A stretch of DNA of 32,000 bases from Methylorubrum extorquens (GCA_900234795.1 LT962688.1:3240001-3272000); one strand, 5' to 3'; shown: positions 1 through 14,506, counted from the first letter of the stretch. The notes: generated from the letters alone by a model not told the origin. Program-made: numbers and translations.

Positions 1-1
1 C

Positions 2-1408
2 GCCAAGCAGGCCGAACTGATCGGGCGGGGCGAGCGCCGGACGCTGGCCCGCTCGCGCTCCGTCCTCGACCTGCTCGCCGGGGTGCTCGAGCAATCGCGC
101 TTTTCCGCCGCCTGCACCGCCGCGGTGACGGACCTTGCCATCGCCTTTTCCTGCCAGCGCGCGGCAATCGGCTTCGTGCGGCGCGGCAGCACCCGGATCG
201 CGGCGATCTCGCACTCGGCGCAGTTCGGCCGCGAGATGAACCTCGTGCGCCGCCTCGGCGCCTGCATGAACGAGGCGATCGACCAGCGCAGCCTGATCCT
301 GTTCCCGCCGCCCGAGAACGAGGCCACCGTCACGACGGCGCATGCCGACCTCGCCCGCCTGCAATATGGCGGCCGAGTGCTGACCGTGCCGATGCTCGTC
401 GATGACCGCTTCGTCGGCGCCATCACCCTGGAGCGGCCCGCCGACCAGCCGTTCAGCCTCGAGATCGTCGAGCAGGTGAGCGCCTGCGCCGCCGCCATCG
501 GCCCGGTGCTGGAAGACAAGCGGCAGAACGACCGATGGCTGGTGCTGAAGGCCACCGACGCCGTGATGAACGGCGCGCGGCTGGTCTTTGGCCCGAACCA
601 TACCGGGCTCAAGCTCGGCCTCGCCGCGACGCTGGCCGTGGTCCTGGCGCTCTCGGTGATCAAGATCGATTACCGCGTGACTGCGGACGCCCGCGTCGAA
701 GGCCTCGTGCGCCGTTCCGTCGTCGCCTCCTACGACGGCTACCTGAAGACCGCCGGGCACCGCGCCGGCGACACGGTGCGCAAGGGCGATCTCCTCGCCG
801 CCCTGGAAGACCGCGATCTCGCCCTGGAGCGCCTGCGCTGGGTCACCGAGCGCCAGCAGCGCACCTACGAGTACGACAAGGCGCTCGCCACCCGGCAGCC
901 CGCCACGATCAACGTGGTGAAGAGCCAGATCGATCAGGCCGACGCGCAGATCCGCCTGCTCGACGAGCAGATCGCGCGCTCGAAATTCACCGCGCCCTTC
1001 GACGGCTTGATCGTCTCCGGCGACCTTTCGCAATCCATCGGCGGCGCCATCAGCCGCGGACAGGTGCTGTTCGAGATCGCTCCGCTCGACAGCTACCGCG
1101 TCGTCCTCAGCGTGGACGAGCGCCTGATCGCCGACCTGCGCGAGGGCCAGACCGGGCACGTGCTCGCGACCTCCCTGCCCGACCAGCCGCAAGTGCTGAC
1201 GATCCAGACCATCACCCCCGTGGCCGAGGCCAAGAACGGCCGCAACCTGTTCCGGGTCGAGGGCCGGATCGAGGACGGCGCCACCCGGCTGCGGCCGGGC
1301 ATGGAAGGCATCGCCAAGGTCGATGTCGACCGGCGGCTGCTCGCCTGGGTCTGGGCCCGGCCGATCGTCGATTGGGTGCACCTCGCCCTCTGGCACTGGT
1401 GGCCGTGA
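2..1408 (+). CDS. GAF domain / HlyD-family membrane fusion (periplasmic adaptor) protein, probably 5'-partial
   Basis: The frame is open from base 2 with no stop before the GTG at 83, so the gene likely starts upstream of the window. The N-terminal part looks like a GAF domain (VPMLVDDRFVGAITLERP...). A hydrophobic helix follows (LGLAATLAVVLALSVI). The rest is HlyD-like: a lipoyl-like hairpin (GDTVRKGDLLAALED), a coiled coil, then FTAPFDGLIV and a beta-barrel region. An 11-nt gap containing gagg precedes the next gene. Confidence 0.75.
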   Translation, partial: AKQAELIGRGERRTLARSRSVLDLLAGVLEQSRFSAACTAAVTDLAIAFSCQRAAIGFVRRGSTRIAAISHSAQFGREMNLVRRLGACMNEAIDQRSLILFPPPENEATVTTAHADLARLQYGGRVLTVPMLVDDRFVGAITLERPADQPFSLEIVEQVSACAAAIGPVLEDKRQNDRWLVLKATDAVMNGARLVFGPNHTGLKLGLAATLAVVLALSVIKIDYRVTADARVEGLVRRSVVASYDGYLKTAGHRAGDTVRKGDLLAALEDRDLALERLRWVTERQQRTYEYDKALATRQPATINVVKSQIDQADAQIRLLDEQIARSKFTAPFDGLIVSGDLSQSIGGAISRGQVLFEIAPLDSYRVVLSVDERLIADLREGQTGHVLATSLPDQPQVLTIQTITPVAEAKNGRNLFRVEGRIEDGATRLRPGMEGIAKVDVDRRLLAWVWARPIVDWVHLALWHWWP

Positions 1409-1419
1409 GGGGTTGAGGC

Positions 1420-3567
1420 ATGTCCCAGTCCCTGTTCAGCCAATCGTGGTACCGCGTCGCGGCCCTGCGCCCGCGCCTGCGCCGCCATGCCGAGATCCAC
1501 CGGCAGAGCTTTCGCGGCGAGGTCTGGTACGTCCTTCAGGATCACCAGACCGGGCGCTTCCACCGCCTCTCGCCCGCCGCCAACCTCATCCTGTGCATGA
1601 TGGACGGGCGCCGCACCCTGCAGGAGGTGTGGGAGGCGGCCGCGCGCCGCAACGAGGATGACCCGCCGACCCAGGACGACACGATCCGTCTGATCTCGCA
1701 GCTCCACGGCTCGGACCTGCTCCAGGGCGACCTGCCGCCCGATCTCGCCGAACTCGCCGAGCGCTCGGAATCGACCGCGCGCCGCACCCTGATCGCCCGG
1801 GTGAAGAACCCGCTGGCCCTGCGCTTCCCGCTGTTCGACCCCGATCCGTTGCTCGACCGGGTCGCGCCGTATTTCCGGCCGCTCTTCTCGGTCTGGGGGC
1901 TCGCGGTCTGGCTCGCGGTGGTGATTGCCGGCCTCGTCGTGGCCGGGTTGCACGCGGGCGAGCTGACCGGCGACGTCGCCGGTCAGATGCTCTCGGCGCA
2001 GAACGTCGCGCTGATGATGTGCCTCTACCCCGTCATCAAGGCCCTACACGAGGCCGGGCACGCCTGCGCCGCAAAAGCCTGGGGCGGCGAGGTGCACGAG
2101 GTCGGCGTGATGCTGCTCGTGCTGTTCCCGGCGCCCTACGTCGATGCCTCGACCTCCGCCGCCTTCCCCAGCAAGTGGCAGCGGATGATGGTGGCCGCCG
2201 CCGGCATCTTCGTCGAGCTGTCCCTGGCGGGCCTTGCCGCCATCATCTGGGCCACGGCCGAGCCCGGCCTCGTGCGGGCGGCAGCCTTCAACGTGATGTT
2301 GATCGGCAGCGTTTCGACGCTGCTGTTCAACGGCAACCCGCTGCTGCGCTTCGACGGCTACTACATCTTCGCCGACCTGATCGAGATCCCGAATCTCGGC
2401 TCGCGGGCCAATCGCTACGTCTTCTACCTGATCGAGCGCTACGCCCTGAAGATCGAGGGCGCGAAGAGTCCGGTGACGGCGGATGGCGAGCGGCCCTGGC
2501 TGTTCGTCTACGCGGTGGCCGCCTTCGTCTACCGCACCACCGTCTCGATCGCGATCGCGAGCTTCATCGCCACGCAGTACTTCGTGTTCGGCGTGCTGCT
2601 GGCCGGGCTCGCGCTGTTCGGCACCGTGGTCTCGCCCCTGGTGAAGGGGCTCAAGTTCATCCTCACCGATCCGAAGCTGAACCGGCGCCGGAGCCGGGCT
2701 GTCACCCTCACGAGCGCCGCCACCGGTGCGGTTCTGGCCCTGCTGTTCGTGGTACCCCTGCCCTACACGACGATGGCGCAGGGCGTCGTCTGGGCGCCGG
2801 ACGACACGCAGATCCGCACCAAGACCGACGGCATCCTGACCACGCTGCTGGTGGAGCCCGGCCGCGACGCGCAGGCCGGCGAGGCCCTGGCGACGCTCGA
2901 AGACCCGAGCCTCGACAGCCGCGTCGCGGTGCTGGAGGCGCAGCTCGCCGAACTGCGCCTGCGCTACGACGCCGCCCGGCTCGGCGACCGGGTGCAGGCG
3001 CAGATTCTGCAGGAGCAGATCGCCAGCACGCAGGAGATCCTGCGGGTCTACCGTGAGCGGCAGGCCGGCCTCATCGTGCGGGCATCCCAGGCCGGCCGGC
3101 TGATCGTGCCGGGGGCCGTCGATCTGCCGGGGCGGTATCTGCGCCGGGGCGAGCGCATCGGCTACGTGCTCACCACAGACGACCCCGTAGTGCGGGTCGT
3201 GGTGCCGCAGACGGATGTGGACCTGATCCGCAGCCGGACGCAGGGCGTCGCCGCGCGGCTGGCCGAGAAGCCGGAGGAAGTCCGCGCCGGCTCGATCCTG
3301 CGCGAGGTGCCAGGGGCGCAGCAGGAGATCCCGAGCCTCGCCCTCGCGACGCAGGGCGGCGGCACCATCGCCGTGGACGCCAGCAACCCGCAGAAGCCGG
3401 TGGCGCTTCAGAGCATCTTCGTCTTCGACGTCCAGCTCGCGGGCGGCCTCCCTTTCAACGTGCTCGGCGAGCGGGTCTATATCCGGTTCGATCACGGGGC
3501 GGAGCCGATCGCGTGGCGCGCGCTGCGCAGCCTGCGGCAGGTGTTCCTGAGCCAGTTCCGTGTCTGA
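1420..3567 (+). CDS. Three-part fusion: PqqD-like N-terminal domain, M50 (site-2 protease family) zinc metalloprotease membrane core, HlyD-like periplasmic C-terminal domain
   Basis: The HExxH motif HEAGH lies at nt 2047-2061 in a hydrophobic context (LHEAGHACAAKAWGGEVHEVGVMLLVLFPAPYVDAS). The downstream NGNPLLRFDGYY fits the M50 third-ligand motif. The N-terminal 50-100 aa (RFHRLSPAANLILCMMDGRRTLQEVW...LISQLHGSDLL) follow a PqqD-like pattern. The C-terminal 250 aa have an HlyD-like lipoyl and coiled-coil pattern (GEALATLEDPSLDSRVAVLEAQLAELRL). Confidence 0.8.
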   Translation: MSQSLFSQSWYRVAALRPRLRRHAEIHRQSFRGEVWYVLQDHQTGRFHRLSPAANLILCMMDGRRTLQEVWEAAARRNEDDPPTQDDTIRLISQLHGSDLLQGDLPPDLAELAERSESTARRTLIARVKNPLALRFPLFDPDPLLDRVAPYFRPLFSVWGLAVWLAVVIAGLVVAGLHAGELTGDVAGQMLSAQNVALMMCLYPVIKALHEAGHACAAKAWGGEVHEVGVMLLVLFPAPYVDASTSAAFPSKWQRMMVAAAGIFVELSLAGLAAIIWATAEPGLVRAAAFNVMLIGSVSTLLFNGNPLLRFDGYYIFADLIEIPNLGSRANRYVFYLIERYALKIEGAKSPVTADGERPWLFVYAVAAFVYRTTVSIAIASFIATQYFVFGVLLAGLALFGTVVSPLVKGLKFILTDPKLNRRRSRAVTLTSAATGAVLALLFVVPLPYTTMAQGVVWAPDDTQIRTKTDGILTTLLVEPGRDAQAGEALATLEDPSLDSRVAVLEAQLAELRLRYDAARLGDRVQAQILQEQIASTQEILRVYRERQAGLIVRASQAGRLIVPGAVDLPGRYLRRGERIGYVLTTDDPVVRVVVPQTDVDLIRSRTQGVAARLAEKPEEVRAGSILREVPGAQQEIPSLALATQGGGTIAVDASNPQKPVALQSIFVFDVQLAGGLPFNVLGERVYIRFDHGAEPIAWRALRSLRQVFLSQFRV

Positions 3568-5596
3568 CCCCCTCGCCCTCTCCGCCGGCTCGGCGCCCGG
3601 AGCCGCCTTCCGCGTGCCGACCGTGCGCGCCTATTCCGAGCGCAAGCCGCTGAAGGCGAGCCGGCTGGATCAGGCCGCTGCGCGGGTGATCGGCCGCGTG
3701 CGCGTCGGGCTCGCCGGCTGGGCGGCCCGCCGCTACGCGCGGATCGCCCGCGCCGCCCTGGCGCAGGCCGAGGACATCGCCGAGCTGTCCGAAGAGGCGC
3801 TGCAATTCCGCATTCGGGCGATCACGGGCGCTCTGCGCGCCCGGAAAACGTTTCGCGATGCCGACATCGCGGAGGCGTTCGCGCTGATCCGCGAGATGTC
3901 GGGGCGGGTGAAGGGGCAGCGCCATTACGGCGTGCAGATGATGGGTGCTGCCGCCATCCTCGACGGGCGCGTCGCCCAGATGGCCACCGGCGAGGGCAAG
4001 ACCCTCACGGCGACGCTGGCCGCCGGGGCCGCGGCGCTGGCCGGCCTTCCCGTCCACGTCGTCACGGTCAACGATTACCTCGCCGAGCGCGACGCCGAGG
4101 AGATGCGTCCGCTCTACGCCGCGCTGGGGCTCACCGTCGGCGTCATCAAGGAGAAGCAGGAGCAGCCGGAGCGGGCACAGGCCTATGGCTGCCACATCAC
4201 CTACTGTACCAACAAGGATCTCGCCTTCGACTACCTGCGCGACCGGATCGCGTTGGGCCAGCGCGCCAGCGACGTGCGCCTCAAGCTCGAGAGCTTGCAT
4301 GCGAGCGCGAGCCGGCTCGCCCAGCTCCGCCTGCGCGGCCTGCACTTCGCCATCGTCGACGAGGCCGACAGCGTGCTGATCGACGAGGCGCGCACGCCGC
4401 TCATCATCTCGGCCCCGGCCGGCTCGCAGTTCGGCACGGAGGTGCTCGCCCGCGCCATGGAAATCGCGGCGGAGTTGAAGAGCCCCGAGGATTACGGGAT
4501 CGAGGCGGCCGAGCACCGGATCATCCTCACCGAGGCCGGCCGCGAGCGGATCACGCGTCTCGCCACGAGCGACGGGCGCGGCGAGGCCTCGGCTTGGCGT
4601 GGGCGTGTCACCCGCGAGGGGCTGGTGCGCCAGGCGCTCTCGGCTCTGCACCTGTTCCACCGCGACGAGCACTACATCCTGCGCGACGGCAAGGTGGTGA
4701 TCGTCGATGCCAATACCGGCCGGGTGATGCCGGACCGGAGCTGGAGCGACGGCCTGCACCAGATGGTCGAGCACAAGGAGGGCTGCGACCTCTCCGGCGC
4801 CCGCTCGACGCTGGCCCGCATGACCTACCAGCGCTTCTTCCGCCGCTATCCCCGGCTCGCCGGCATGACCGGCACGACCCGCGGCGTCGCCGCCGAATTC
4901 TGGACGGTCTACCGCCTACCGGTGGTGCGCATCCCGACGCACCGGCCGGTGCAGCGGCGCCACCTCCCCGACGAGGTCATGCCCGACGAGGCGGCGAAAT
5001 GGCGGCGGGTGACGGCACGCATCGCCGAGCTCCATGCGAAGGGCTGCCCGGTTCTCGTCGGCACCCGCTCGGTGGCGGCCTCCGCGCGGGCGAGCACGCA
5101 TCTCACCGCAGCCGGGCTGCCGCACACGGTGCTCAGCGCCGCTCAGGACGGGCAGGAAGCGGCCATCGTGGCGCAGGCCGGGCAGTGCGGCCGCATCACG
5201 GTGGCGACGAACATGGCCGGGCGCGGCACCGACATCAAGCTCGGCCCCGGCGTGGCTGAACGCGGCGGCCTGCATGTCATCATGGTCGAGCGCCAGGACG
5301 CGCAGCGCATCGACGACCAGCTCGCCGGCCGCAGCGGACGCCAGGGCGAGCCCGGCTGTTTCCAGGCGATTCTTTCGCTCGACGATCCGCTGCTGGATAG
5401 CAGCCTCGTTAGCCGCGGGCTCGCCCGCCGCATCATGGCGCTGCTCGGCCCCGAGCGCGGCCGGGTCTTCGGCGCGCGCCTGCTGCGCCACGCGCAGTTG
5501 CGCACCGAGCGGCTGCACGGGCGCATGCGCGCCGACCTGCTGCATTCCGACCAGATGCAGGACCGTATTCTGGCTTTTGCCGGCCATGCCGAGTGA
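3560..5596 (+). CDS. SecA-like ATPase paralog (NBD1, reduced PPXD, NBD2) truncated within the first helix of the helical scaffold domain
   Basis: SecA signatures are present: Walker A MATGEGKTL (nt 3980-), VTVNDYLAERDAEEM, ITYCTNKDLAFDYLRDR, Walker B AIVDEADSVLIDEARTPLIIS, TNMAGRGTDIKLG and LAGRSGRQGEPG. At 678 aa it is well short of the roughly 900 aa expected for housekeeping SecA. The GTG start overlaps the stop of the upstream gene by 8 nt, which suggests translational coupling. Confidence 0.85.
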   Translation: MSDPLALSAGSAPGAAFRVPTVRAYSERKPLKASRLDQAAARVIGRVRVGLAGWAARRYARIARAALAQAEDIAELSEEALQFRIRAITGALRARKTFRDADIAEAFALIREMSGRVKGQRHYGVQMMGAAAILDGRVAQMATGEGKTLTATLAAGAAALAGLPVHVVTVNDYLAERDAEEMRPLYAALGLTVGVIKEKQEQPERAQAYGCHITYCTNKDLAFDYLRDRIALGQRASDVRLKLESLHASASRLAQLRLRGLHFAIVDEADSVLIDEARTPLIISAPAGSQFGTEVLARAMEIAAELKSPEDYGIEAAEHRIILTEAGRERITRLATSDGRGEASAWRGRVTREGLVRQALSALHLFHRDEHYILRDGKVVIVDANTGRVMPDRSWSDGLHQMVEHKEGCDLSGARSTLARMTYQRFFRRYPRLAGMTGTTRGVAAEFWTVYRLPVVRIPTHRPVQRRHLPDEVMPDEAAKWRRVTARIAELHAKGCPVLVGTRSVAASARASTHLTAAGLPHTVLSAAQDGQEAAIVAQAGQCGRITVATNMAGRGTDIKLGPGVAERGGLHVIMVERQDAQRIDDQLAGRSGRQGEPGCFQAILSLDDPLLDSSLVSRGLARRIMALLGPERGRVFGARLLRHAQLRTERLHGRMRADLLHSDQMQDRILAFAGHAE

Positions 5597-5609
5597 GGAC
5601 TGTTTTGCG

Positions 5610-6491
5610 ATGACCCTTCTGGCTGGAACGCGGCAAGCCCGGATCTGCGCGGCGCTCGCTGCCCTCTTCCTCTCCACCTGCGCGGCGCGCGCCCAGGACA
5701 CCCGCGTCGATTGCGTGGTGGAGCCGGCGCAGAAACTGAAGATCGGTTCGGCGACGCTCGGCATCCTCAAGAGCGTGCCGGTCAATCGCGGCGCGGCGGT
5801 CAAGGCCGGCGACATCATCGCCCGGCTCGATTCGAGCGTGGAAGAGGCCAACGTCGCCCTGTCGCGGGCGCAGGCAGAATCGACCGCCGGCATCGAGGCG
5901 CAGCAGACCCGCGTCGAACTTTACAAGCGCCGCCTCGAACGCCAGAACCAGCTCTCAAAGGGCATCGTCACCCAGGAGAAGCTCGATCAGGTCGAGGCCG
6001 ATTACGAGATCGGGAGGCGCGACCTCCAGACCGAGATCCTCAAGCACAAGCTCAACGGCATCGAACTCCAGCGCGCCGAGGCGCAGCTCGAATTGCGGAT
6101 GATCCGCAGCCCGATCCGCGGCATCGTCACCGAGCGGTTGATGTCGGCCGGCGAGTTCGTACGCCAGGACAGCGCGATCTTCACCCTGGTCCAGCTCGAT
6201 CCGCTCTACGTCGAGGCCTACCTGCCGGTCTCCCGCTGGAAAGAGATCGCCCTCGGGATGCCGGCCACCGTCGTGCTCGACCAGCCGATCGGCGGCGCCT
6301 ACGAGGCCAAGGTCAGCGTGGTCGATCAGGTGTTCGACGCGGCGAGCGGCACCTTCGGCGTGCGCCTCGAATTACCGAACCCGGACTTCAAGCTGCCCGG
6401 CGGCCAGCGCTGCAAGGTCGCCTTCCCGCTTCCCCCCGCCGGGCCGCTCGCGACCGCCCTGCCCCCCGACGCCAAGTTCGACGCTAAGTAG
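5610..6491 (+). CDS. HlyD / efflux RND-type periplasmic adaptor subunit with N-terminal signal or lipoprotein-like peptide
   Basis: The ATG at 5610 gives MTLLAGTRQARICAALAALFLSTCAARAQD, a signal peptide. This is followed by a lipoyl-like motif (AVKAGDIIARLDS), a coiled coil, IRSPIRGIVTE and a beta-barrel region. An alternative ATG at 5586 overlaps the secA-like stop. The upstream part of the tracked ORF (5034-5609) lies inside the secA-like gene and is rejected. Confidence 0.8.
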   Translation: MTLLAGTRQARICAALAALFLSTCAARAQDTRVDCVVEPAQKLKIGSATLGILKSVPVNRGAAVKAGDIIARLDSSVEEANVALSRAQAESTAGIEAQQTRVELYKRRLERQNQLSKGIVTQEKLDQVEADYEIGRRDLQTEILKHKLNGIELQRAEAQLELRMIRSPIRGIVTERLMSAGEFVRQDSAIFTLVQLDPLYVEAYLPVSRWKEIALGMPATVVLDQPIGGAYEAKVSVVDQVFDAASGTFGVRLELPNPDFKLPGGQRCKVAFPLPPAGPLATALPPDAKFDAK

Positions 6492-6560
6492 GCGGCGAAT
6501 CGGAGACCGGTTGCCCGGCGCGATGGACCTTTGCCCGTCATCGACGTATTGCGCTGCACG

Positions 6561-7220
6561 ATGGAGCGGACGGCGACACGGATGCTGACGGTGGGGCTCG
6601 CGGCGCTCGGCGCCGCCGTGCCACCCGCCGACGCGGGCAGCGCGCGGGCGCAAGCGGCGGGAGCCGCCGCCGAGACAAGCCGGGAGGCGCAGGATGGGTC
6701 CGAGGCGCGCGCCTTGATCGAAACGCTGAGCGCCCGCCTTCTCGCCGCGCCGAGCGCCACCGCCGTTCTCGAAGCGTGGTGCGCCGAGCGCGGGCTCAGC
6801 CCCGATCCGCGGATCGTCGCCGTGCGCGTCCCCGGCCCGGACAAGCTCCCCGGCGCAGCCCGGCGCGAGCGGCTGGCCGTGGGCCCGGACGAGCCGGTGC
6901 GCTACCGCCGGGTGCGGCTCACCTGCGGCACCCACGTCCTGTCCGAGGCCGACAACTGGTACGTTCCGAGCCGCCTGACGCCCGCGATGAACGCGGCGCT
7001 CGACGGCACGCAGGCCCCCTTCGGCCACGTCGTGCGCCCGCTCGGTCCGAGCCGGCGCAACCGGTCGCTGACGATGCTGTGGCGGCCCGAATCCGGCGGC
7101 CTGCCGGGGCCCGGCGAACCGCTGTTCTCAGTCGAGGCGGTGCTGACGGCCGGCGGCGTGCCGTTCTGCGAAGTCGCCGAGACTTATACCGGCGCCGTGC
7201 TCATTCAGGGCGAGCGCTGA
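6561..7220 (+). CDS. Secreted hypothetical protein, last gene of the operon
   Basis: The ATG at 6561 (or 6582) gives a signal-peptide-like N-terminus (MLTVGLAALGAAVPPADAGSARAQA). Third codon positions are GC-rich, consistent with real coding. I recognise no family with confidence. The segment LEAWCAERGL...YRRVRLTCGTHVLSEADNWYVP vaguely recalls chorismate-lyase/UTRA-fold proteins, which is weak inference. Confidence 0.55.
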   Translation: MERTATRMLTVGLAALGAAVPPADAGSARAQAAGAAAETSREAQDGSEARALIETLSARLLAAPSATAVLEAWCAERGLSPDPRIVAVRVPGPDKLPGAARRERLAVGPDEPVRYRRVRLTCGTHVLSEADNWYVPSRLTPAMNAALDGTQAPFGHVVRPLGPSRRNRSLTMLWRPESGGLPGPGEPLFSVEAVLTAGGVPFCEVAETYTGAVLIQGER

Positions 7221-7255
7221 CGCGACTCCCGGCCAGACCCCAGTTTGTCCCATCC

Positions 7256-7334
7256 GTCATCGCGAGCGAAGAGATCCAGGACCGCGACGGCTTCGGAGAG
7301 GTCGGCGCGCTGGACGGCTTCATCTCGCCGTGAC
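7256..7334. repeat. REP-like imperfect intergenic palindrome between convergent genes
   Basis: The left arm is gtcatcgcgagcgaagagatccag (7256-7279). The right arm is ctggacggcttcatctcgccgtgac (7310-7334). The reverse complement of the right arm shares the blocks gtca/gcgag/gaag/tccag with the left arm. From memory it resembles a Rhizobiales repeat family with a GTCATTGCGAGCGAAGCGAAGCAATCCAG core. Confidence 0.45.
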
Positions 7335-7352
7335 GAGATCGAGCCTCTTAGA

Positions 7353-8243
7353 TCAAAAATCCTGATCGGCCCGGCGGCCCTCGCGGGCAAGGCGCAGCAG
7401 GTTCTGGCCGTAGCTGGTCTTGGCGAACAGCTCGCCGCGCGCTTGCAACTGCTCGCGGCCGATGAAGCCTTGCAGGTAGGCAATCTCCTCCAGGCAGGCG
7501 ACCTGAAGCCCCTGCCGGCGCTGCAGCACCCGCACGAACTCGCCGGCCTCGAGCAGGCTGTCATGCGTGCCTGTGTCGAGCCACGCGTAGCCGCGGCTCA
7601 TCCGCTCGACATGGAGCTGGCCGCGTTCGAGATAGGCTTGGTTGACGGATGTGATCTCGAGTTCGCCCCGGTCCGAGGGCTTCACCTCCGCGGCGATGTC
7701 GAGAACCTGATTGTCGTAGAAGTACAGGCCCGTCACCGCCCAGGGGCTTTCGGGGGTCTTGGGCTTCTCCACCAGCCGCAAGGGCCGGCCGGACTCGTCG
7801 AGGGTGACGACGCCGTAGGCCTCCGGATGATCGACGTGGTAGGCAAACACCGTCGCCCCGCTCTTGCGGGTGCGCGCCTTGGCGAGCAGGTCGCTCATGC
7901 CGTTGCCGAAGAAAAGGTTGTCGCCGAGCACCAGTGCCACGTCGTCGCTGCCGACGAAGTCGCGGCCGATGATGAAGGCCTGGGCCAGCCCTTCGGGTCG
8001 CGGCTGCACCGCATAGGTGAAGGTGACGCCGAACTGCTCACCGGTGCCGAGCAGGCGCTGGTAGTTGCCGAGATGCTCCGGCGAGGAGATGACGAGGATC
8101 TCGCGGATGCCGGCGAGCATCAGCACCGAGATCGGATAGTAGATCATCGGCTTGTCGTAGACCGGCAGCAGCTGCTTGTTGATCGCCAGCGTGGCCGGAT
8201 GGAGCCTGGTGCCGGAGCCGCCGGCGAGCACGATGCCCTTCAT
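7353..8243 (-). CDS. rfbA: Glucose-1-phosphate thymidylyltransferase
   Basis: [55 protein letters not shown] is the canonical RmlA N-terminus. The ATG at 8243 follows agga and lies just after the rfbD stop. The GTG start in the ORF track (8252) is less likely. Confidence 0.95.
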
Positions 8244-8259
8244 ACGAAACACGTCCTGA

Positions 8260-9150
8260 TCAGTGGGAGCGAACCGGCCCGACCAGCCGGTCGAGGATGT
8301 CGTCGAGCGCCGGCTCCCAGGAGCGCGGCGCGAGGCCGTAGGCGTCGGTCAGGCTCTGGGTGGAGAGGCGCGAGTTCACAGGGCGCCGGGCCGGCGTCGG
8401 GTAGGCCGAACTCGGGATGCCCTCGATCGGCACCGAGCGCCCGCCGCGCCGGACCGACCCGGAGACGATCGCCCGGGCGAACTCGCACCACGTCGTCGCG
8501 CCGTCGTTGACGCAGTGGAAGGTGCCGGTGGGCGCAGCCTCGTCGCCGGCCAGCCGTAGGGCGATGGTGGCGAGCGCGCGCGCGAGGTCGGCGGCCGAGG
8601 TCGGGCAGCCGTGCTGGTCCTCGACAACGGTAAGCCGATCCCGCTCGTCCGCGAGCCGCAGCATCGTCTTGACGAAGTTGCCCCGGTGCGGGCTCACCAC
8701 CCAGGCAGTGCGCACGATGGCGTGGCGCGGATTGCCGGAGCGGACCGCCATCTCGCCGGCCGCCTTGCTGGCGCCGTAGACGCTCTGCGGGTTCACCGGC
8801 GCATCGGGGGCGTAGAAGCCTTCGCCCGACCCATCGAACACGTAGTCGGTCGAGACATGGACGAGCGGGATGGCCCGCCGCTTCGTCTCGGCCGCGAGGA
8901 TGGCCGGGGCCAGCGCGTTGAGGCGCCACGCGGCCGCGACCTCGCTCTCGGCCTTATCCACCGCAGTGTAGGCGGCCGTGTTGATCACCGCCGCATAGGT
9001 GCGCGCATCGAGCGCGGCGGCAATGGCGATCTCGTCGGTGATGTCGAGGTTCTGACGGTCGGGCGCGTGGACCCGCACGCCCTCGGGCCAGGGAAAGGCC
9101 TGAAGCTCCGTGCCGACCTGACCGGCGCCGCCGAGGATCAGGATGTCCAT
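8260..9150 (-). CDS. rfbD: dTDP-4-dehydrorhamnose reductase
   Basis: [16 protein letters not shown] is a Rossmann-type N-terminus, and [12 protein letters not shown] and YGASKAAGE are RmlD signatures. The ATG at 9150 lies 2 nt after the rfbB stop. Confidence 0.93.
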
Positions 9151-9152
9151 GT

Positions 9153-10211
9153 TCAGGCGCTCTTGGGCGCGAGGCCGAGGCGCTCGCCGGAATAGCGGCC
9201 CTCGCGGATCGGGCGCCACCACGCCTCGTTGTCGAGGTACCAGCGCACGGTTTCCGTCAGCGCCTCCTCGAACACCTTGGTCGGCCGCCAGCCGACCTCG
9301 GCTTCCGCCTTCGACGGGTCGATGGCGTAGCGGCGGTCATGGCCGGGCCGGTCGGCGACGAAGCTGATCAGGCGCTCGTGCGGGCCGTTCTCGGGCTTGA
9401 GTTGGTCGAAGGCGGCACAAAGCGCCTTCACCACGGCGAGGTTGTTCCGCACCGAGCGCCCGCCCAGCAGGTAGGTCTCGCCGAGCCGGCCGCGCTCCAG
9501 CACCGCGACGAGGCCGCGGGCATGGTCCTCGACATGGATCCAGTCGCGCTCGTTCAGGCCGTCGCCGTAGACTGGGAGCGGCTTGCCCTCCAGCGCCGCC
9601 AGGATCATCAGCGGGATCAGCTTCTCGGGGAAGTGGCGCGGGCCGTAATTGTTCGAGCAGTTCGTCACCAGAACCGGCAGGCCGTAGGTCTCGTGCCAGG
9701 CGCGGGCGAGATGGTCGGAGGCCGCTTTTGACGCCGAGTAGGGCGAGCGCGGATCGTAACGGCTCTCCTCAGTGAAGAAGGCGTCGGGCGGCAGCGAGCC
9801 GTAGACCTCGTCGGTCGAGACGTGGAGGAAGCGGAACGTCGCCTTGGCCTCGCGGTCGAGGCTTTCCCAATGGGTGCGGGCGCCGTCGAGCATGACCTGG
9901 GTGCCGATGACGTTGGTGCGCACGAAGGCACCCGGATCGGTGATCGAGCGATCGACATGGCTCTCGGCGGCCAGATGCATCACCGCCTCGGGCCTGAACT
10001 CGGCGTAGAGGGCGTGGACGCGGGCCGGATCGCAGATGTCGGCCTGTTCCAGGCGGTGGCGCGGGTCGTCCGCCAGCGGCTGCAGCGAGATCGGATTGGC
10101 GGCATAGGTCATGGCATCGAGGGTCAGCACCTCGTGGCCGAGATCCTGCACCAGATGCAGCACGAGCGCGGAGCCGATGAAGCCGCAGCCGCCCGTTACC
10201 AGAATGCGCAT
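9153..10211 (-). CDS. rfbB: dTDP-glucose 4,6-dehydratase
   Basis: MRILVTGGCGFIGSALV, HLAAESHVDRSI, FLHVSTDEVYG and YSASKAASDHL are the RmlB SDR signatures. The ATG is at 10211. Confidence 0.95.
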   Translation of the reverse strand: MRILVTGGCGFIGSALVLHLVQDLGHEVLTLDAMTYAANPISLQPLADDPRHRLEQADICDPARVHALYAEFRPEAVMHLAAESHVDRSITDPGAFVRTNVIGTQVMLDGARTHWESLDREAKATFRFLHVSTDEVYGSLPPDAFFTEESRYDPRSPYSASKAASDHLARAWHETYGLPVLVTNCSNNYGPRHFPEKLIPLMILAALEGKPLPVYGDGLNERDWIHVEDHARGLVAVLERGRLGETYLLGGRSVRNNLAVVKALCAAFDQLKPENGPHERLISFVADRPGHDRRYAIDPSKAEAEVGWRPTKVFEEALTETVRWYLDNEAWWRPIREGRYSGERLGLAPKSA

Positions 10212-10344
10212 CGATCTCAACTCCGTCCAATTCCTGCCAGCGGGGTCGGCATCCGCGGGATGGGCAAGGGCCACGCTCGGCCGCGCCTACGCCAACCTGA
10301 GGTCGGGCTCAATCCGCCCGACCGAACGATCTCGATACCTTGAC

Positions 10345-10896
10345 TCAGAACACCCGCCCGAGATCGGCCAGAAGCGGCGCCGCCTTGTCCTTGCCCGAGA
10401 GGATCGCATCCGCTTCGGCCACCGGCCATTCAATGCCGATCGCCGGATCGTTCCAGCGCAGGTTCCTGTCGTCGGCTGGGCTGTAATAGGCGTCCACCTT
10501 GTAGGCGACCATGGTGTCCGGCTCCAGGGTGCAGAAGCCATGGGCAAAGCCGGCGGGCACGAAGAGCTGTTCGCCGCCGGTCGCATCGAGCCGCACCGCG
10601 ACGTGGCGGCCGTAGGTCGGAGAGTCGGAGCGCAGGTCAACGGCGACATCGAGGATCGCGCCGGCGAGCACCCGGATCAGCTTGGCCTGGGCGTTGGGTG
10701 CGACTTGGAAGTGCAGGCCCCGGATCGTGCCGGCGGGCGCGGAGAAGGACTGGTTGTCCTGCACGAAGGCGTTGGCGATCCCGTGCTCGGACAGGATATC
10801 GGCCCGGTAGATCTCGGAGAACCAGCCGCGGTCGTCGCCGTGGCGCTTCGGGATCACCCGTTTGACCGCCGGAATCTCAGTATCGATGACCTGCAT
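10345..10896 (-). CDS. rfbC: dTDP-4-dehydrorhamnose 3,5-epimerase
   Basis: KRHGDDRGWFSEIY, GTIRGLHFQ and LFVPAGFAHGF are RmlC cupin motifs. This is the first gene of the minus-strand rfbCBDA operon. Confidence 0.95.
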   Translation of the reverse strand: MQVIDTEIPAVKRVIPKRHGDDRGWFSEIYRADILSEHGIANAFVQDNQSFSAPAGTIRGLHFQVAPNAQAKLIRVLAGAILDVAVDLRSDSPTYGRHVAVRLDATGGEQLFVPAGFAHGFCTLEPDTMVAYKVDAYYSPADDRNLRWNDPAIGIEWPVAEADAILSGKDKAAPLLADLGRVF

Positions 10897-11081
10897 CCGC
10901 CGCTCCTGACTTGTCCGTATCGGCTCGCCGTGGGCGTAGGCCGCGCGAAGGCGGCGAAGTCAAGGCCGCATCGTCATGCGGCCTCATATCCCGCGCCTTG
11001 CCCCGCTCCTTGCGTAACCGTGGCGGGCTGACTACCGCTCGCGCCGGCCGGCGGTCACTGTCGGCGAGGAGGGAAGCTCGA

Positions 11082-11525
11082 ATGACGACGCCGCGCGCCA
11101 ACCGTTCACGCCATCGCCCGAGGCACATCTTCGCCGCGGCGCTGCTGCTCGCCGTGTCCGGCACAGGCGCCTTCGCGCAAAAGGCCTCGGACCTCTCCGG
11201 CCTGTGGCAGACGGAGACGGCGGGCTCGACCGTGCGCATCGCCCGTTGCGGCGGCGGCTATTGCGGTGTGATCGCCGCGACCGCCGGCGCCGGCCTCGAC
11301 GCTCAGAACCCCGATCCGGCGCTGCGTTCGCGCAAGCTCGTCGGCGTGCAGATCATGCAGGCCGGCACCCCGAGCGGCAACGGCTTCGAGGGCAGCCTCT
11401 ACAATCCGAACGACGGCAAGACCTATTCGGGCAGCGTCACGCCGAAGGGACCCGACACCATCGAAGTGGCGGGCTGCGTGCTCAGCGTTCTGTGCAAGCG
11501 CCAGACCTGGCGGCGGATTCGGTAG
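11082..11525 (+). CDS. DUF2147 domain-containing secreted protein
   Basis: The ATG at 11082 is preceded by gaggagggaag. A signal peptide is present (HIFAAALLLAVSGTGAFAQ). GLWQTE...VRIARCGGGYCGVI, GSLYNPNDGKTYSG and VAGCVLSVLCKRQTWRR match the DUF2147 pattern. Confidence 0.8.
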   Translation: MTTPRANRSRHRPRHIFAAALLLAVSGTGAFAQKASDLSGLWQTETAGSTVRIARCGGGYCGVIAATAGAGLDAQNPDPALRSRKLVGVQIMQAGTPSGNGFEGSLYNPNDGKTYSGSVTPKGPDTIEVAGCVLSVLCKRQTWRRIR

Positions 11526-11547
11526 AGCGAACCCCCGCCTCTCCCGC

Positions 11548-12015
11548 TCAGTGATCCGCGCTTCCGGGCGCGGATTCCATCGCGCTGTCGATGAGCGCGG
11601 CCTTCTCGGCCGGCGGCTCGGCGCTCGCCATGGCCTTCGTCTCCAGAAGAGGCTGCAGGCGGGCGGCGAGCTGCTTGTCGAGGTGGCGGGCGTAGGCCCC
11701 CTTGAAGTAGCGGGCGCCGGTGCCGGGGCCGTAGATCCGGTCGTGGGCGACCGCCATGCGATCGACCTCAGGGCGACACAGGAAGCCGGTCACTCCGGCC
11801 GCCTCGTACCAGCGCCCGTCCCGCGCGAGCCGCATCGCCTTCGGGTTGGAGACCACGGTTTCGGCAAAGCACGCCGTTGCCGCTTCCTCGAGCGGCGCCA
11901 GCACCGCGTGCTCGGAGCCGGCCACGTGCTGCCGGGCCGGACGCGCCTCGGCCGCGGGGCCGAGCAGGACGAAGGCAAGACCGACGAACGGCAAGGCTCT
12001 CATCACGGCTCTCAT
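11548..12015 (-). CDS. Hypothetical secreted protein
   Basis: There is a signal-peptide-like N-terminus (MRALPFVGLAFVLLGPAAEA). The coding bias is GC3-rich. I recognise no family. Confidence 0.5.
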   Translation of the reverse strand: MRAVMRALPFVGLAFVLLGPAAEARPARQHVAGSEHAVLAPLEEAATACFAETVVSNPKAMRLARDGRWYEAAGVTGFLCRPEVDRMAVAHDRIYGPGTGARYFKGAYARHLDKQLAARLQPLLETKAMASAEPPAEKAALIDSAMESAPGSADH

Positions 12016-12189
12016 GGGGCGCCTCGAACGAGTATGGAACGCCGCCAGTGTTCGCCGAAGATCGCGCCGGATCTAGGGCGAAAACCGATCACCCGTGCCG
12101 CAGCGCGGAACAAATCCGAATCTGTCGCCGGGCCGCCACAGCACGATCCGTGCGAACCGCTTCGCGCCGACGCAGCCTGACAGGCGAAA

Positions 12190-12582
12190 TCAGCCGCGCC
12201 GCATCGCGTTCCAGCTGCCGTTGCAACTGATCGGGCCGTCGCCAAGGGTCGACCAGCGGCCGGCGCCGGTCCCGTTGGCGGACAACCGCCCAAACACTTG
12301 GGCGGCATCGCTGCCGCGGGAGATGGTGCCGCGGACCGTCCCATTTGCCGCGACGCGCCCGCTGATCCCGACCTCTCCGCCGCTGTAGACGGCCTCGCCG
12401 CGCTGGATCTGAATCCCGTAGCGATAAGCCCGGTCGCAGGGGCCGTCGAGGGTCACGACCTCGATGCTCCAGCGGCCGTCGTAGCGGTGCGGCACCTGAA
12501 CCTTGCGCTTGGCTGCCTCCGATGTCCCGGCGCTGCCGACGGCGATGGCGAAGGTGGCGACGGCAAGGATCGGAAGGCGCAT
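12190..12582 (-). CDS. Conserved-looking small secreted hypothetical protein
   Basis: A signal peptide is present (MRLPILAVATFAIAVGSAGTSEA). The body pattern YDGRWSIEVVTLDGPCDRAYRY...ISGRV..NGTVRG recalls small periplasmic proteins of Bradyrhizobiaceae. That is from memory only. Confidence 0.55.
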   Translation of the reverse strand: MRLPILAVATFAIAVGSAGTSEAAKRKVQVPHRYDGRWSIEVVTLDGPCDRAYRYGIQIQRGEAVYSGGEVGISGRVAANGTVRGTISRGSDAAQVFGRLSANGTGAGRWSTLGDGPISCNGSWNAMRRG

Positions 12583-12688
12583 GGGATGACATCCGGCTCA
12601 AGACATGGGGCCGTGTCGGCCCGTTTCAGCCGGAAGATCGTCTTGCGTCCCGCAGTGTCAAGGTTGCTCACGCGGCCTTGAGCGCCAG

Positions 12689-14506
12689 TCAGCCCGTCCC
12701 GCGCTCGGCCGCCTCCCGCAGGAGCGCCAACAGGTCGCAACCGGCGAACAGGAAGCCTCCGACGCCCGCTTGGCGCAGAGCCTCGGCCTCGGCGGGTTTG
12801 CCGGCGAGGTAGATGGTGCCGGCGCCGGCCGCCTTCAGCGCCTCGGCCGCGGGCACGGCCTCGGTCTGGTAGACGGTGTCGGACGAGCACAGGCAGGCGA
12901 TCCGCGCGCCCGACGCCTTGAAGGCATCGGCCAGGGCCTGCCTATCGGAGAAGCCGTCATTGCCGATGGCCTCGATGCCACCCGCGGCGAAGGCGTTGGC
13001 GGCGAAAGTCGAGCGGGCATTGTGGACCGCCACGGGACCGAGATTGGCCAGGAAGACCGCCGGGCGCTTGCCCGTCCGCTCGCGGACGGCGTCGGAGGCG
13101 TCGCGCAGGACCTCGTAGGGTTCGGCGAGGCGTTGCGACGGCAAGGCCCCCTCCGAGGAAGCGGCGGGGTTCGGCGCCACGTCGAGCACCGTCACCGGCT
13201 GCTCGGCGAGGAAGGGGAACTCGCTGGCGCCGGTCAGCGGCTCCTTGCGGGTCGCGACCGCCCGTGCCCGGGCCTGCGCCACCGCCGCGATCCGACCCGC
13301 GAAGGCGCCGGACTCCAGGCTCGCGGCGATCCCGCCCTCCCGCTCGATCTCCTGGAAGGCCGCCCAGGCCTTCTCGGTCAGTTCGGCGGTCAGCGCCTCG
13401 AAGCCGCCCGCGCCGGCCGCCGGATCGGAGACCTTGGCGAGGTTCGATTCCTCGATCAAAACGATCTGGCTGTTGCGCACCACCCTCCGGGCAAAGGGGT
13501 CGGGCAGACCAAGCGCCAGGGTGTAGGGCAGCGCGGTCACCGAATCCGCCCCGCCAAGGCCGGCGGAGGCCGAGGCCATGGTGGTGCGCAGGATGTTCAC
13601 GAAAGGATCGCGGCGGCTCATCATCCGCCACGCAGTCTCGGCCAGGACCCGCAGCGGCTTCGGCTCGAGGCCGCAGGCCTGCTCGACCCGAGCCCAGAGC
13701 CGCCGGATCGCGCGGAACTTGGCGATGGTCAGGAATTCGTCGGCATCCGCCACCAGCAGGACCGCGATCTGGTCGCGCGCGAGCGCGAGATCGTGGCCGC
13801 CGGCCTCCAGCGCCCGCAGATAGGCGACCGCCGTCGCGAGCACGGCAGCCAGTTCCTGCACCTCGCTCGCCCCCGCCTCGTGATAGGGCCGGGCATCGGC
13901 CAAGGCCGCGCGCCCATGGTATCCGGCGAAGGCGGTGACGGTCTCGGAGAGGCGTGCCTCCCACCCCTGGTCGAGCCGGCCGGTGGCGGCGCGGGTGCCG
14001 ATCGGGTCGAGACCGAGATCGAGGTCGAGCGCGGACGGGTCGTCGCCGCGACGATCGATCAGTTGCTTGAGAAGCGCCGCCGTCTCGAATCCGGCCGGGC
14101 CGGCATCGAGCCGCAGGGCGATGAGCGGCAGCATCACGCCCGTCAGCGCCGCATCCAGCGCATCGACGGACGGAAGTTCGAGGCCGAAGCCGCGGGCGGC
14201 ACGGGCGTCGCGATGGACGAGGACCAGCGCATCGGCACCGCCTTCGAGGTCGGCCAGCGCCTGTGCTCCGGCCTTCTCGGCATCGGGATGGTCGATGCGC
14301 TGCGCCAGACGCCACGGGCCGGGCGCCCGCACCGGCTGGGCCACCGCAGCGGCCGGCTCGTAGAAGGGCTCGATGCGCAGGCCGTCGGCGGTCTTCGACA
14401 CGAGACGCTTCTCGAAGTCCGCCCCCTTCAGCGCGGCTTCGACGGCTTGGCGCCAGCGCTCGCGGGTGGCGGGCTCGAACAACTCGGCGAGCGGACGATC
14501 TTCCAT
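12689..14506 (-). CDS. mcmB: Methylmalonyl-CoA mutase small (beta) subunit
   Basis: The N-terminus MEDRPLAELFEPATRERWRQAVEAALKGADFEKRLVSKTADGLRIEPFY is typical of the MCM small subunit. The TIM-barrel-like core lacks the catalytic-subunit motifs. The C-terminal flavodoxin-like domain (RPAVFLANLGP...ACLCSSD) lacks the DxHxxG cobalamin ligand motif. The ATG at 14506 is preferred over the upstream start in the track. Confidence 0.85.
   Translation of the reverse strand: MEDRPLAELFEPATRERWRQAVEAALKGADFEKRLVSKTADGLRIEPFYEPAAAVAQPVRAPGPWRLAQRIDHPDAEKAGAQALADLEGGADALVLVHRDARAARGFGLELPSVDALDAALTGVMLPLIALRLDAGPAGFETAALLKQLIDRRGDDPSALDLDLGLDPIGTRAATGRLDQGWEARLSETVTAFAGYHGRAALADARPYHEAGASEVQELAAVLATAVAYLRALEAGGHDLALARDQIAVLLVADADEFLTIAKFRAIRRLWARVEQACGLEPKPLRVLAETAWRMMSRRDPFVNILRTTMASASAGLGGADSVTALPYTLALGLPDPFARRVVRNSQIVLIEESNLAKVSDPAAGAGGFEALTAELTEKAWAAFQEIEREGGIAASLESGAFAGRIAAVAQARARAVATRKEPLTGASEFPFLAEQPVTVLDVAPNPAASSEGALPSQRLAEPYEVLRDASDAVRERTGKRPAVFLANLGPVAVHNARSTFAANAFAAGGIEAIGNDGFSDRQALADAFKASGARIACLCSSDTVYQTEAVPAAEALKAAGAGTIYLAGKPAEAEALRQAGVGGFLFAGCDLLALLREAAERGTG

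Follow-up and report, generated by a model that had tools for sequence, protein, structure and literature searches.

Genes for "secondary SecA_DEAD domain proteins", which lack the wing/scaffold domain, are grouped across phyla with genes for Peptidase_M50/HlyD, GAF/HlyD and further HlyD (biotin_lipoyl) proteins, as was described by Kamneva, Poudel and Ward in 2015 (PLoS One, PMC4452313). These authors analysed the operon META1p2402-2399 of Methylorubrum extorquens AM1 and suggested a role related to type I secretion, in which the SecA_DEAD protein would serve as the ATPase and the M50 protein might be a membrane component; the function was left open. Here we analyse the orthologous operon in a stretch of 32,000 nucleotides (nt) from M. 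extorquens (GCA_900234795.1, LT962688.1:3240001-3272000; in the following, "the window"). Positions 1-6491 of the window are the Methylobacterium/Methylorubrum copy of this module, and the gene combination is thus already known. Our favoured reading, to which we assign a probability of about one half, is that the module is a type-I-like, TolC-dependent machine for trans-envelope protein export and processing that is driven by the SecA paralog. The link between the module and giant proteins with an N-terminal LEPR-XLL motif, which are its candidate cargo, is new here; we did not find it published.

The four proteins and their order are the same in the window and in the 2015 description. On the other hand, the PqqD/RRE domain (RRE being the recognition element of ribosomally synthesised and post-translationally modified peptides, RiPPs), the DUF3467 gene, the SapC gene inside the operon, the radical-SAM cassette and any cargo are not found in that paper. 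The original prediction for this locus, which was made from the sequence of the window alone, had held that no system of such a composition has been characterised. The composition had in fact been published, but we were not able to find any functional study of the module after 2015 in the searchable full-text literature. Copies of the module are very common and reach from Proteobacteria to Nitrospirota and Flavobacteriales, and in the eleven years since it was described no function has been assigned to it; mechanistically, this kind of system differs from every characterised secretion system.

Other described systems resemble the module in part. Type I systems (HlyB-HlyD-TolC, LapBCE and the sapCDEF system of Campylobacter fetus) share with it the alpha-hairpin adaptors, TolC-like genes that are contiguous with the module in some loci, an association with SapC, and giant neighbours with repeats, cadherin or RTX domains. 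However, the module has no ABC transporter, a SecA-family ATPase as the energy source, an M50 protease fused to an adaptor and three adaptors in total, and its candidate signal is N-terminal (LEPR-XLL) and not C-terminal. Canonical SecA and SecA2 have in common with the SecA-like protein the domains NBD1, PPXD and NBD2 with all ATPase motifs, but the latter stops early in the scaffold helix, has no SecY2/Asp partners and is encoded together with adaptor proteins. The RRE-containing leader proteases of RiPP pathways (NF041824 and NF058609) likewise place a PqqD-like RRE at the N-terminus, ahead of a polytopic HExxH membrane protease, and in the source genome tailoring genes (radical SAM, methyltransferase) lie nearby; the M50 protein of the module differs from them in that it scores far under their cutoffs, is fused to an adaptor, has no small precursor gene and is associated with proteins of thousands of residues. 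Finally, the maturation of the QHNDH gamma subunit (QhpC; QhpD, QhpG, QhpE and QhpF) may serve as an analogy only: it combines a radical SAM enzyme with a Trp-modifying flavoprotein, cuts a leader and uses a dedicated inner-membrane exporter, but neither a QhpC-like Cys-rich subunit nor dehydrogenase genes are present here, and the protease and exporter are of other types.

We examined positions 1-7220 of the window on the + strand; upstream DNA was taken from the chromosome CP021054.1 (locus L002, a stretch of 22 kb), and altogether the upstream DNA of the source genome extends ~8.6 kb past the start of the window. With a profile built from the M50 fusion (alignment A1), 80 genome loci were collected, and their gene order was determined by tblastn. 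Note that the presence of the module genes was counted over 84 loci, and that of the neighbours (DUF3467, SapC, OEP and cassette) over the 80 scanned loci. The 80 loci come from Alpha-, Beta-, Gamma- and Deltaproteobacteria, Nitrospirota, Myxococcota, Methylomirabilia and Flavobacteriales, that is, from at least seven phyla or classes. Nearly all of them keep the order GAF-HlyD, M50-HlyD, SecA-like, HlyD, so the gene combination on which the original prediction was built is indeed conserved across phyla. GAF-HlyD lies directly upstream of M50-HlyD in 78/84 loci, the SecA-like gene directly downstream of it in 77/84, and an HlyD gene 3' of the SecA-like gene in 60/84, with most of the absences of these three genes falling at contig ends. 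In one locus (L008 from Devosia aurantiaca, 7866-12792) M50-HlyD is split into three open reading frames (ORFs) and HlyD is fragmented, which may reflect decay of this copy or else a frameshift or assembly error.

It had also been noted that no ABC transporter or outer-membrane factor is visible beside these genes, and the 10 kb upstream of the SecA-like gene (CP021054.1), where a standard pump with TolC might have been located, contain no ABC or RND pump and no TolC either. Likewise, we were not able to find an HlyB-type ABC gene within 10 kb on either side of the module, or a TolC-family gene near it in the window or in the flanks of the source genome. No ABC exporter or RND pump recurs around the module in the 80 loci; TolC-like OEP genes are contiguous with it in 10 of them.

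Domain content of the module proteins

The window was claimed to start with five densely spaced genes on the + strand, and the ORF coordinates agree exactly with this, including the junctions. For the first four, Pfam and NCBIfam agree with every domain assignment that had been made by eye. Gene 2 (1420..3567, 715 amino acids, aa), which follows gene 1 after an 11-nt gap, matches PqqD with 27.7 bits (cutoff 23.4), Peptidase_M50 with 29.9 bits (cutoff 27.2) and HlyD_3. It consists of an N-terminal PqqD/RRE-like peptide-binding domain (~1489-1722), a polytopic core of the M50 site-2 type, and a C-terminal adaptor with an alpha-hairpin at ~2911-3066. The zinc-binding and catalytic motif HExxH (H210, E211, H214) is located at 2047..2061, and the NxxPxxxxDG motif of site-2 proteases (N304-G313), with D312 as the third zinc ligand, at 2329..2358. 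HExxH is invariant in the 20 sequences of alignment A1, which have 37-58% identity, and in 41 further homologues. N304, N306, P307, L308 and D312 are invariant in A1, and the NxxPxxxxDG motif is also invariant in a second alignment (A3).

The AlphaFold2 (AF2) model of gene 2 has a mean confidence (pLDDT) of 77. In this model, the N-terminus forms three strands and three helices, as is typical of PqqD-like RREs, and is followed by the polytopic core and by the adaptor with its two-helix hairpin; transmembrane (TM) helices are present in the core according to both the prediction and the model. A Foldseek search with the C-terminal adaptor part finds MexA, MacA and AcrA at ~1e-12. The family is large, with 4480 clusters at 50% identity (E<1e-30), and nearly all of its members have ~715 aa.

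Gene 3 (3560..5596, 678 aa) overlaps gene 2 by 8 nt. It matches SecA_DEAD (1.6e-98), SecA_PP_bind and P-loop_SecA, and we see no Pfam matches to the wing, scaffold or C-terminal domains. It aligns only to residues 17-557 of Bacillus subtilis SecA (NBD1, PPXD and NBD2), with ~40% identity. Thus, an N-terminal extension of ~55 aa is followed by NBD1, PPXD and NBD2, and the ~60 residues past NBD2 with which the protein ends are a conserved tail equivalent to the beginning of the scaffold helix. The protein has neither a two-helix finger nor a wing domain, and no C-terminal linker with its zinc site. Both the Pfam content and the alignment therefore bear out the earlier view of gene 3 as a SecA paralog that retains the motor domains but not the translocon-engaging C-terminus. 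Its scores remain under every NCBIfam cutoff for SecA and SecA2 (the best being 590 vs a cutoff of 814).

In the alignment, Walker A (MATGEGKT) is found at 3980..4003 and the DEAD (Walker B) motif at 4358..4369. Walker A, DEAD and motif VI are kept in 71 SecA-like paralogs, and among the best 120 matches the length varies only from 595 to 685 aa; that is, the family is both large and uniform. Several of the truncated paralogs (P0002, P0017, P0019, P0051 and P0069) carry the NCBI label "prepilin peptidase", which looks like a propagated annotation error. In two loci, L047 (11904-14081) and L038 (12138-14072), the SecA-like slot is filled by divergent SecA_DEAD proteins with 28-37% identity to the protein in the window; the one in L047 has 725 aa and no detectable match to PPXD or P-loop_SecA.

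Gene 1 is cut by the edge of the window, which contains its 3' part of 468 codons (1..1408). In the upstream DNA of CP021054.1 its start lies 480 nt before the window, and the complete protein has 628 aa. It matches GAF (8e-7), HlyD_3 and HlyD_D23 and is laid out as a cytoplasmic GAF sensor (~107-502), a single TM helix (~605-661) and a periplasmic HlyD adaptor domain. Gene 4 (5610..6491, 293 aa), 13 nt after gene 3, encodes an HlyD/RND_mfp periplasmic adaptor (RND_mfp match at 6e-40) with an N-terminal signal-like sequence; an alternative start at 5586 would result in an 11-nt overlap with gene 3. Altogether we count three different adaptors, of which two are anchored by cytoplasmic or membrane modules, and no recognisable inner-membrane transporter.

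LEPR-XLL giant proteins beside the module

Many loci contain a very large gene directly beside the module. The products of these genes have from 1000 to more than 2300 aa and contain cadherin, Big_9, FG-GAP, DUF4347 or RTX domains, or have no Pfam match, and their N-termini have the sequence L-E-P-R-x-L-L-S-A-D in common. To our knowledge, the LEPR-XLL class includes some of the largest proteins of prokaryotes, and we know of no secretion signal or route for them. A relaxed regular expression for the motif has only 10 matches in the six-frame translation of all tested loci and the window, where a rough estimate of the chance expectation is ~2 matches for the relaxed expression and practically none for the extended motif. 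All 10 matches are located 18-105 aa from the start of an ORF that directly flanks the module, and 8 of these ORFs begin on the strand of the HlyD gene, 0.1-0.8 kb downstream of it. In L050 the motif is present in a variant form. When eight of the N-termini were tested, six scored above the cutoff of NCBIfam NF012209 (LEPR-XLL domain). Altogether, a LEPR-XLL giant gene flanks the module in at least 11 of the 80 loci.

In the reciprocal test, a DNA pattern for the LEPR motif yielded 120 metagenome stretches with 118 instances of the motif. Every one of the 118 instances is near the start of a long ORF (up to more than 4600 aa), and 35 have a module gene in the DNA examined. At least 2.5 kb of upstream DNA was present for 55 instances; among these, 17 have a module gene, and in 13 M50-HlyD or the SecA-like gene lies just upstream, usually on the same strand. 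The chance of finding the module in a random 10-kb stretch is expected to be well below 1%. The usual order in the metagenome stretches is M50-HlyD, SecA-like, (HlyD), (SapC), LEPR gene. For example, L185 contains the full series of DUF3467, GAF-HlyD, M50-HlyD, SecA-like, HlyD, SapC and LEPR gene, while L141 combines the cassette, SapC and a LEPR gene, and L095 a methyltransferase, SapC and a LEPR gene.

The leader has a basic character (a median of 6 K/R among the 24 residues that precede the motif) and contains phi-x-phi-E just N-terminal of LEPR. It has no hydrophobic core, and therefore it is not a Sec signal. Among loci without a LEPR match, a search for variant leader motifs in the ORFs directly 3' of the module found nothing convincing and many spurious ORFs in high-GC DNA.

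The cargo link finds independent support in Chlorobium chlorochromatii. According to a 2026 preprint (bioRxiv 10.64898/2026.03.19.712371), its giant proteins Cag_663 and Cag_665 have N-terminal LEPRxLL domains and SapC and TolC as neighbours, and Cag_1676, a secA gene gained by horizontal transfer, belongs to the same co-expression cluster; a tie to the SecA_DEAD module was not made in that work.

Furthermore, giant RTX (HemolysinCabind) genes are located just upstream of the module in L007 (1-5494, + strand), L072 (121-5433) and L083 (54-5930). The RTX protein of L007, a Stellaceae locus, has 3612 aa, and its gene directly precedes the DUF3467 gene. There is no LEPR motif in the examined DNA of these three genes, where the N-terminus of the L007 protein falls outside the locus.

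A candidate exporter driven by a SecA paralog

The domain content, the intact catalytic motifs, the gene order and synteny, the two-way statistics of the LEPR-XLL association and the leader features come directly from the data; what we infer is the mechanism in all its steps, together with the direction of transport and leader cleavage. A non-canonical export or processing machine powered by a SecA paralog had been the original prediction, and in part it is supported; such a machine remains the best reading. In the model that we favour, the ABC transporter of a type I system would be replaced by the soluble, truncated SecA-family ATPase together with the polytopic M50 metalloprotease, which has a cytoplasmic RRE/PqqD domain and an adaptor of its own. 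The cargo would be very large, repeat-rich surface proteins without a Sec signal, tagged by a basic N-terminal leader that ends in phi-x-phi-E-x-L-E-P-R-x-L-L-S-A-D. This leader would be bound by the RRE domain of the M50 fusion, possibly with the help of DUF3467 and/or SapC. The SecA-like motor may then unfold the protein in an ATP-driven manner and thread the unfolded chain into the inner-membrane platform, where the leader would be removed at the M50 site.

On the periplasmic side, GAF-HlyD, M50-HlyD and the soluble HlyD protein would build a duct to an outer-membrane factor (TolC), which is encoded beside the module in some genomes and would be encoded elsewhere in the source genome. The GAF domain might couple the activity to a cytoplasmic ligand, a step that is pure inference. 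In the source genome the cargo is predicted to be encoded elsewhere, and the divergent cassette next to the module (see below) probably modifies it, because in other genomes this cassette sits beside LEPR-XLL genes.

We hold a wider claim more tentatively, at somewhat less than even odds. It states that the module is an unrecognised class of double-membrane-spanning secretion system, made up of the SecA-family ATPase, the RRE-bearing protease with its fused adaptor, the two other adaptors and TolC, which recognises and removes the LEPR-XLL leader and exports giant surface proteins, some of them (such as Cag_663 and Cag_665) among the largest known from bacteria, with DUF3467 and SapC as chaperones or adaptors and the cassette modifying the cargo. 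If this is true, an export pathway could be named for the giant adhesin-like LEPR-XLL proteins, a SecA-family motor would act outside the SecYEG translocon, and RRE-guided leader recognition would not be confined to small RiPPs but apply also to proteins of several thousand residues.

A number of observations weigh against an export machine of this kind. Only ~14% of the module loci have an adjacent LEPR-XLL gene and, conversely, no module adjoins about three quarters of those LEPR-XLL genes for which enough upstream DNA is present. In the source genome itself there is no LEPR-XLL motif or gene in the window or in the upstream DNA up to ~8.6 kb beyond the window start. The SecA-like gene is missing in cis in 4/80 loci (L021, L055, L080 and L088), where HlyD directly follows M50-HlyD, and one of these, L088 from Marinobacter suaedae chi1, adjoins a gene for a LEPR-XLL/DUF4347/cadherin protein of 1705 aa. 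We looked for a substitute in the flanks of L021 and L088 and found no ABC gene or other ATPase, and replacement by a nearby ABC exporter was thus rejected for these two loci. Cag_1676 could not be confirmed as a truncated SecA paralog. In M. extorquens AM1 in exponential phase, the GAF gene alone was detectably expressed (PMC4452313).

Mechanistic doubts come in addition. There is no obvious protein-conducting inner-membrane channel among the components of the module. We know of no M50 protease that translocates polypeptides. Canonical SecA pushes its substrate with the two-helix finger and a scaffold that completes the clamp, and precisely these elements are missing from the paralog.

Neighbouring genes and alternative readings

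To survey the neighbours, the flanking ORFs of the 80 loci and of L002, L007 and L009 were clustered, and the recurrent ones were annotated and used in searches with hidden Markov models. A DUF3467 gene is found just upstream of GAF-HlyD in 31/80 loci and in a further 6 loci that were collected around SecA-like homologues. In the source genome it encodes 98 aa (L002 5580-5876, + strand) and lies outside the window, 87 nt upstream of the GAF-HlyD start. The protein has a very highly conserved core of 75 aa with two invariant Trp and a variable N-terminal tail; its AF2 model, with four strands and a C-terminal helix, is weak (pLDDT 65). In several metagenome contigs the DUF3467 gene directly adjoins LEPR-XLL genes. 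A role as a SecB-like chaperone is not supported, since we found no sequence match in PDB and no Foldseek match, and hhalign against Escherichia coli SecB gave a probability of 0.14%.

SapC (PF07277) occurs in 16/80 loci, either at the position of DUF3467, downstream, or within the operon as in Rhodobacteraceae. The in-operon form, between M50-HlyD and the SecA-like gene, is seen in five Rhodobacteraceae-type loci (L016, L022, L031, L041 and L075); for example, the SapC gene of L031 lies at 7868-8734 and matches Pfam with 1.3e-67. In three of the five (L031 from Shimia gijangensis, L041, and L075 from Poseidonocella HB161398) the HlyD gene is followed by a LEPR-XLL gene encoding more than 2000 aa.

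In the source genome, a cassette on the opposite strand is located ~1.3-6.2 kb upstream of window position 1 (L002 196-5193, - strand), with a gene for an AraC-type regulator beyond it. Its genes encode a radical SAM enzyme, a 291-aa protein of no known family (unk291), a Trp-halogenase-like flavoprotein of 795 aa, a kinase-like P-loop protein and an O-methyltransferase; in Methylobacterium the flavoprotein is a fusion with a C-terminal domain, unk265. A cassette of radical SAM enzyme, unk291, unk265, flavoprotein and methyltransferase is present in ~8/80 loci from alpha-, delta- and gammaproteobacteria. Beyond these, it adjoins the module in 6/6 loci from Methylobacterium, Mesorhizobium, Devosia and Stellaceae that were collected around SecA-like homologues (including L214 and L215). 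The same pairing is seen in Labrenzia and in metagenome-assembled genomes (MAGs) of a deltaproteobacterium and a member of the Cellvibrionaceae, and in the metagenome contigs L141, L095, L145 and L191 the cassette stands beside LEPR-XLL genes. Homology among SapC, unk291, unk265 and DUF3467 was considered and rejected, as all hhalign probabilities are <=0.5%.

These neighbours could also be explained by a RiPP-like or cofactor-like maturation, which we regard as unlikely. Here, a small precursor (an unannotated peptide or the ~100-aa DUF3467 protein) would first be modified by the radical SAM enzyme, the flavoprotein and the methyltransferase, as in the daptide, YydF or QhpC pathways, then trimmed by the RRE-M50 protease and exported by the HlyD proteins and the SecA-like ATPase. 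Gene 2 does have the PqqD/RRE domain and matches both the daptide intramembrane metalloprotease family NF041824 (1.5e-48) and the YydH/LiaK family NF058609 (1.6e-9), but its scores are far under the cutoffs (165.8 vs 300 and 37.8 vs 225, respectively). The cassette enzymes have a suitable character: the radical SAM enzyme resembles peptide maturases, and the flavoprotein shows a weak resemblance to QhpG and LodB (2.8e-12 against NF049967 QhpG, well under the cutoff), which modify protein-bound Trp. In Methylobacterium the cassette is always beside the module. However, it accompanies only ~10% of the module loci and is also found next to giant LEPR-XLL genes without the module.

As to the precursor, DUF3467 offers two invariant Trp and a variable tail and is fused to unk265 in the deltaproteobacterial MAG L021 (4030-5280, - strand). 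Still, its core is far too conserved for the core peptide of a RiPP, and many loci with DUF3467 have no cassette. In 12 cassette-bearing loci there is no conserved small intergenic ORF; the candidates that recur are only out-of-frame or antisense shadows of known genes. Finally, a SecA-type motor with a PPXD is a better fit for long polypeptides than for a small peptide.

Another explanation, which we consider rather improbable, is an accessory branch of the Sec pathway. In this case, the SecA2-like paralog would bring special clients to SecYEG, the M50 protein would act as a signal or leader peptidase, and the HlyD proteins would lead on to TolC in a two-step secretion. Such a branch would solve the problem of the missing channel. 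Gene 3 is a bona fide SecA-family motor with a PPXD, and M50 proteases such as RseP do clear signal peptides. The sister clade of the secondary SecA_DEAD proteins is the actinobacterial SecA2 (PMC4452313). On the other hand, the paralog lacks the two-helix-finger scaffold, the wing domain and the C-terminal linker, which engage SecY, lipids and SecB, and the LEPR-XLL leader has no hydrophobic core. SecY2 or other accessory Sec genes were not seen in any locus, and the close joining of protease and adaptor in one protein suggests that they belong to a single assembly.

Signalling is the classical function of M50 proteases. Together with the GAF sensor, and with the expression of the GAF gene alone in AM1 in exponential phase, this would fit a signalling device based on regulated intramembrane proteolysis, in which the M50 protein cleaves a membrane regulator under the control of a GAF ligand and the adaptor domains are no more than periplasmic scaffolds. 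We think this very improbable: neither anti-sigma/sigma pairs nor other regulators tethered to the membrane recur around the module in the 80 loci, the SecA motor would have no role, and the three alpha-hairpin adaptors, the TolC genes in 10 loci and the adjacent giant surface proteins point to transport. An ordinary type I or efflux system, with its ABC or RND pump encoded elsewhere and an incidental SecA fragment, would account for the three HlyD-type adaptors and the RTX-type giant proteins near some loci, but it is effectively refuted by the conservation data, that is, by a SecA-like gene with intact motifs, a conserved length (645-685 aa), an 8-nt overlap and the same slot in 77/84 loci, and by the absence of a pump within 10 kb here or recurring elsewhere.

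The last of the five genes, gene 5 (6561..7220, + strand, 219 aa with a signal-like N-terminus), follows gene 4 after a 69-nt gap. It had been counted as a small secreted protein of the system, a view that we abandon. It has no family match in Pfam, NCBIfam or PADLOC and is found only in the source lineage, as an orphan between the module and the rml genes. In M. currus (L214) and M. thuringiense (L215) the HlyD gene is the last of the module and is followed by unrelated genes, and gene 5 is missing 3' of the module there and in all 80 distant loci; this lack of conservation, even within Methylobacterium, rules it out as a member of the operon.

An anti-phage defence system was considered and rejected, as none of the six proteins has a PADLOC match. 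We were not able to find consensus sigma-70 promoters or intrinsic terminators in window 1-8000. The G+C content across the window is 65-73%. Directly downstream on the - strand, a neighbourhood that is not conserved in other Methylobacterium species contains a set of dTDP-rhamnose genes (window 7353-11000), with an rmlA-like gene at 7353-8252, an rmlD-like gene at 8260-9222, and then rmlB- and rmlC-like genes.

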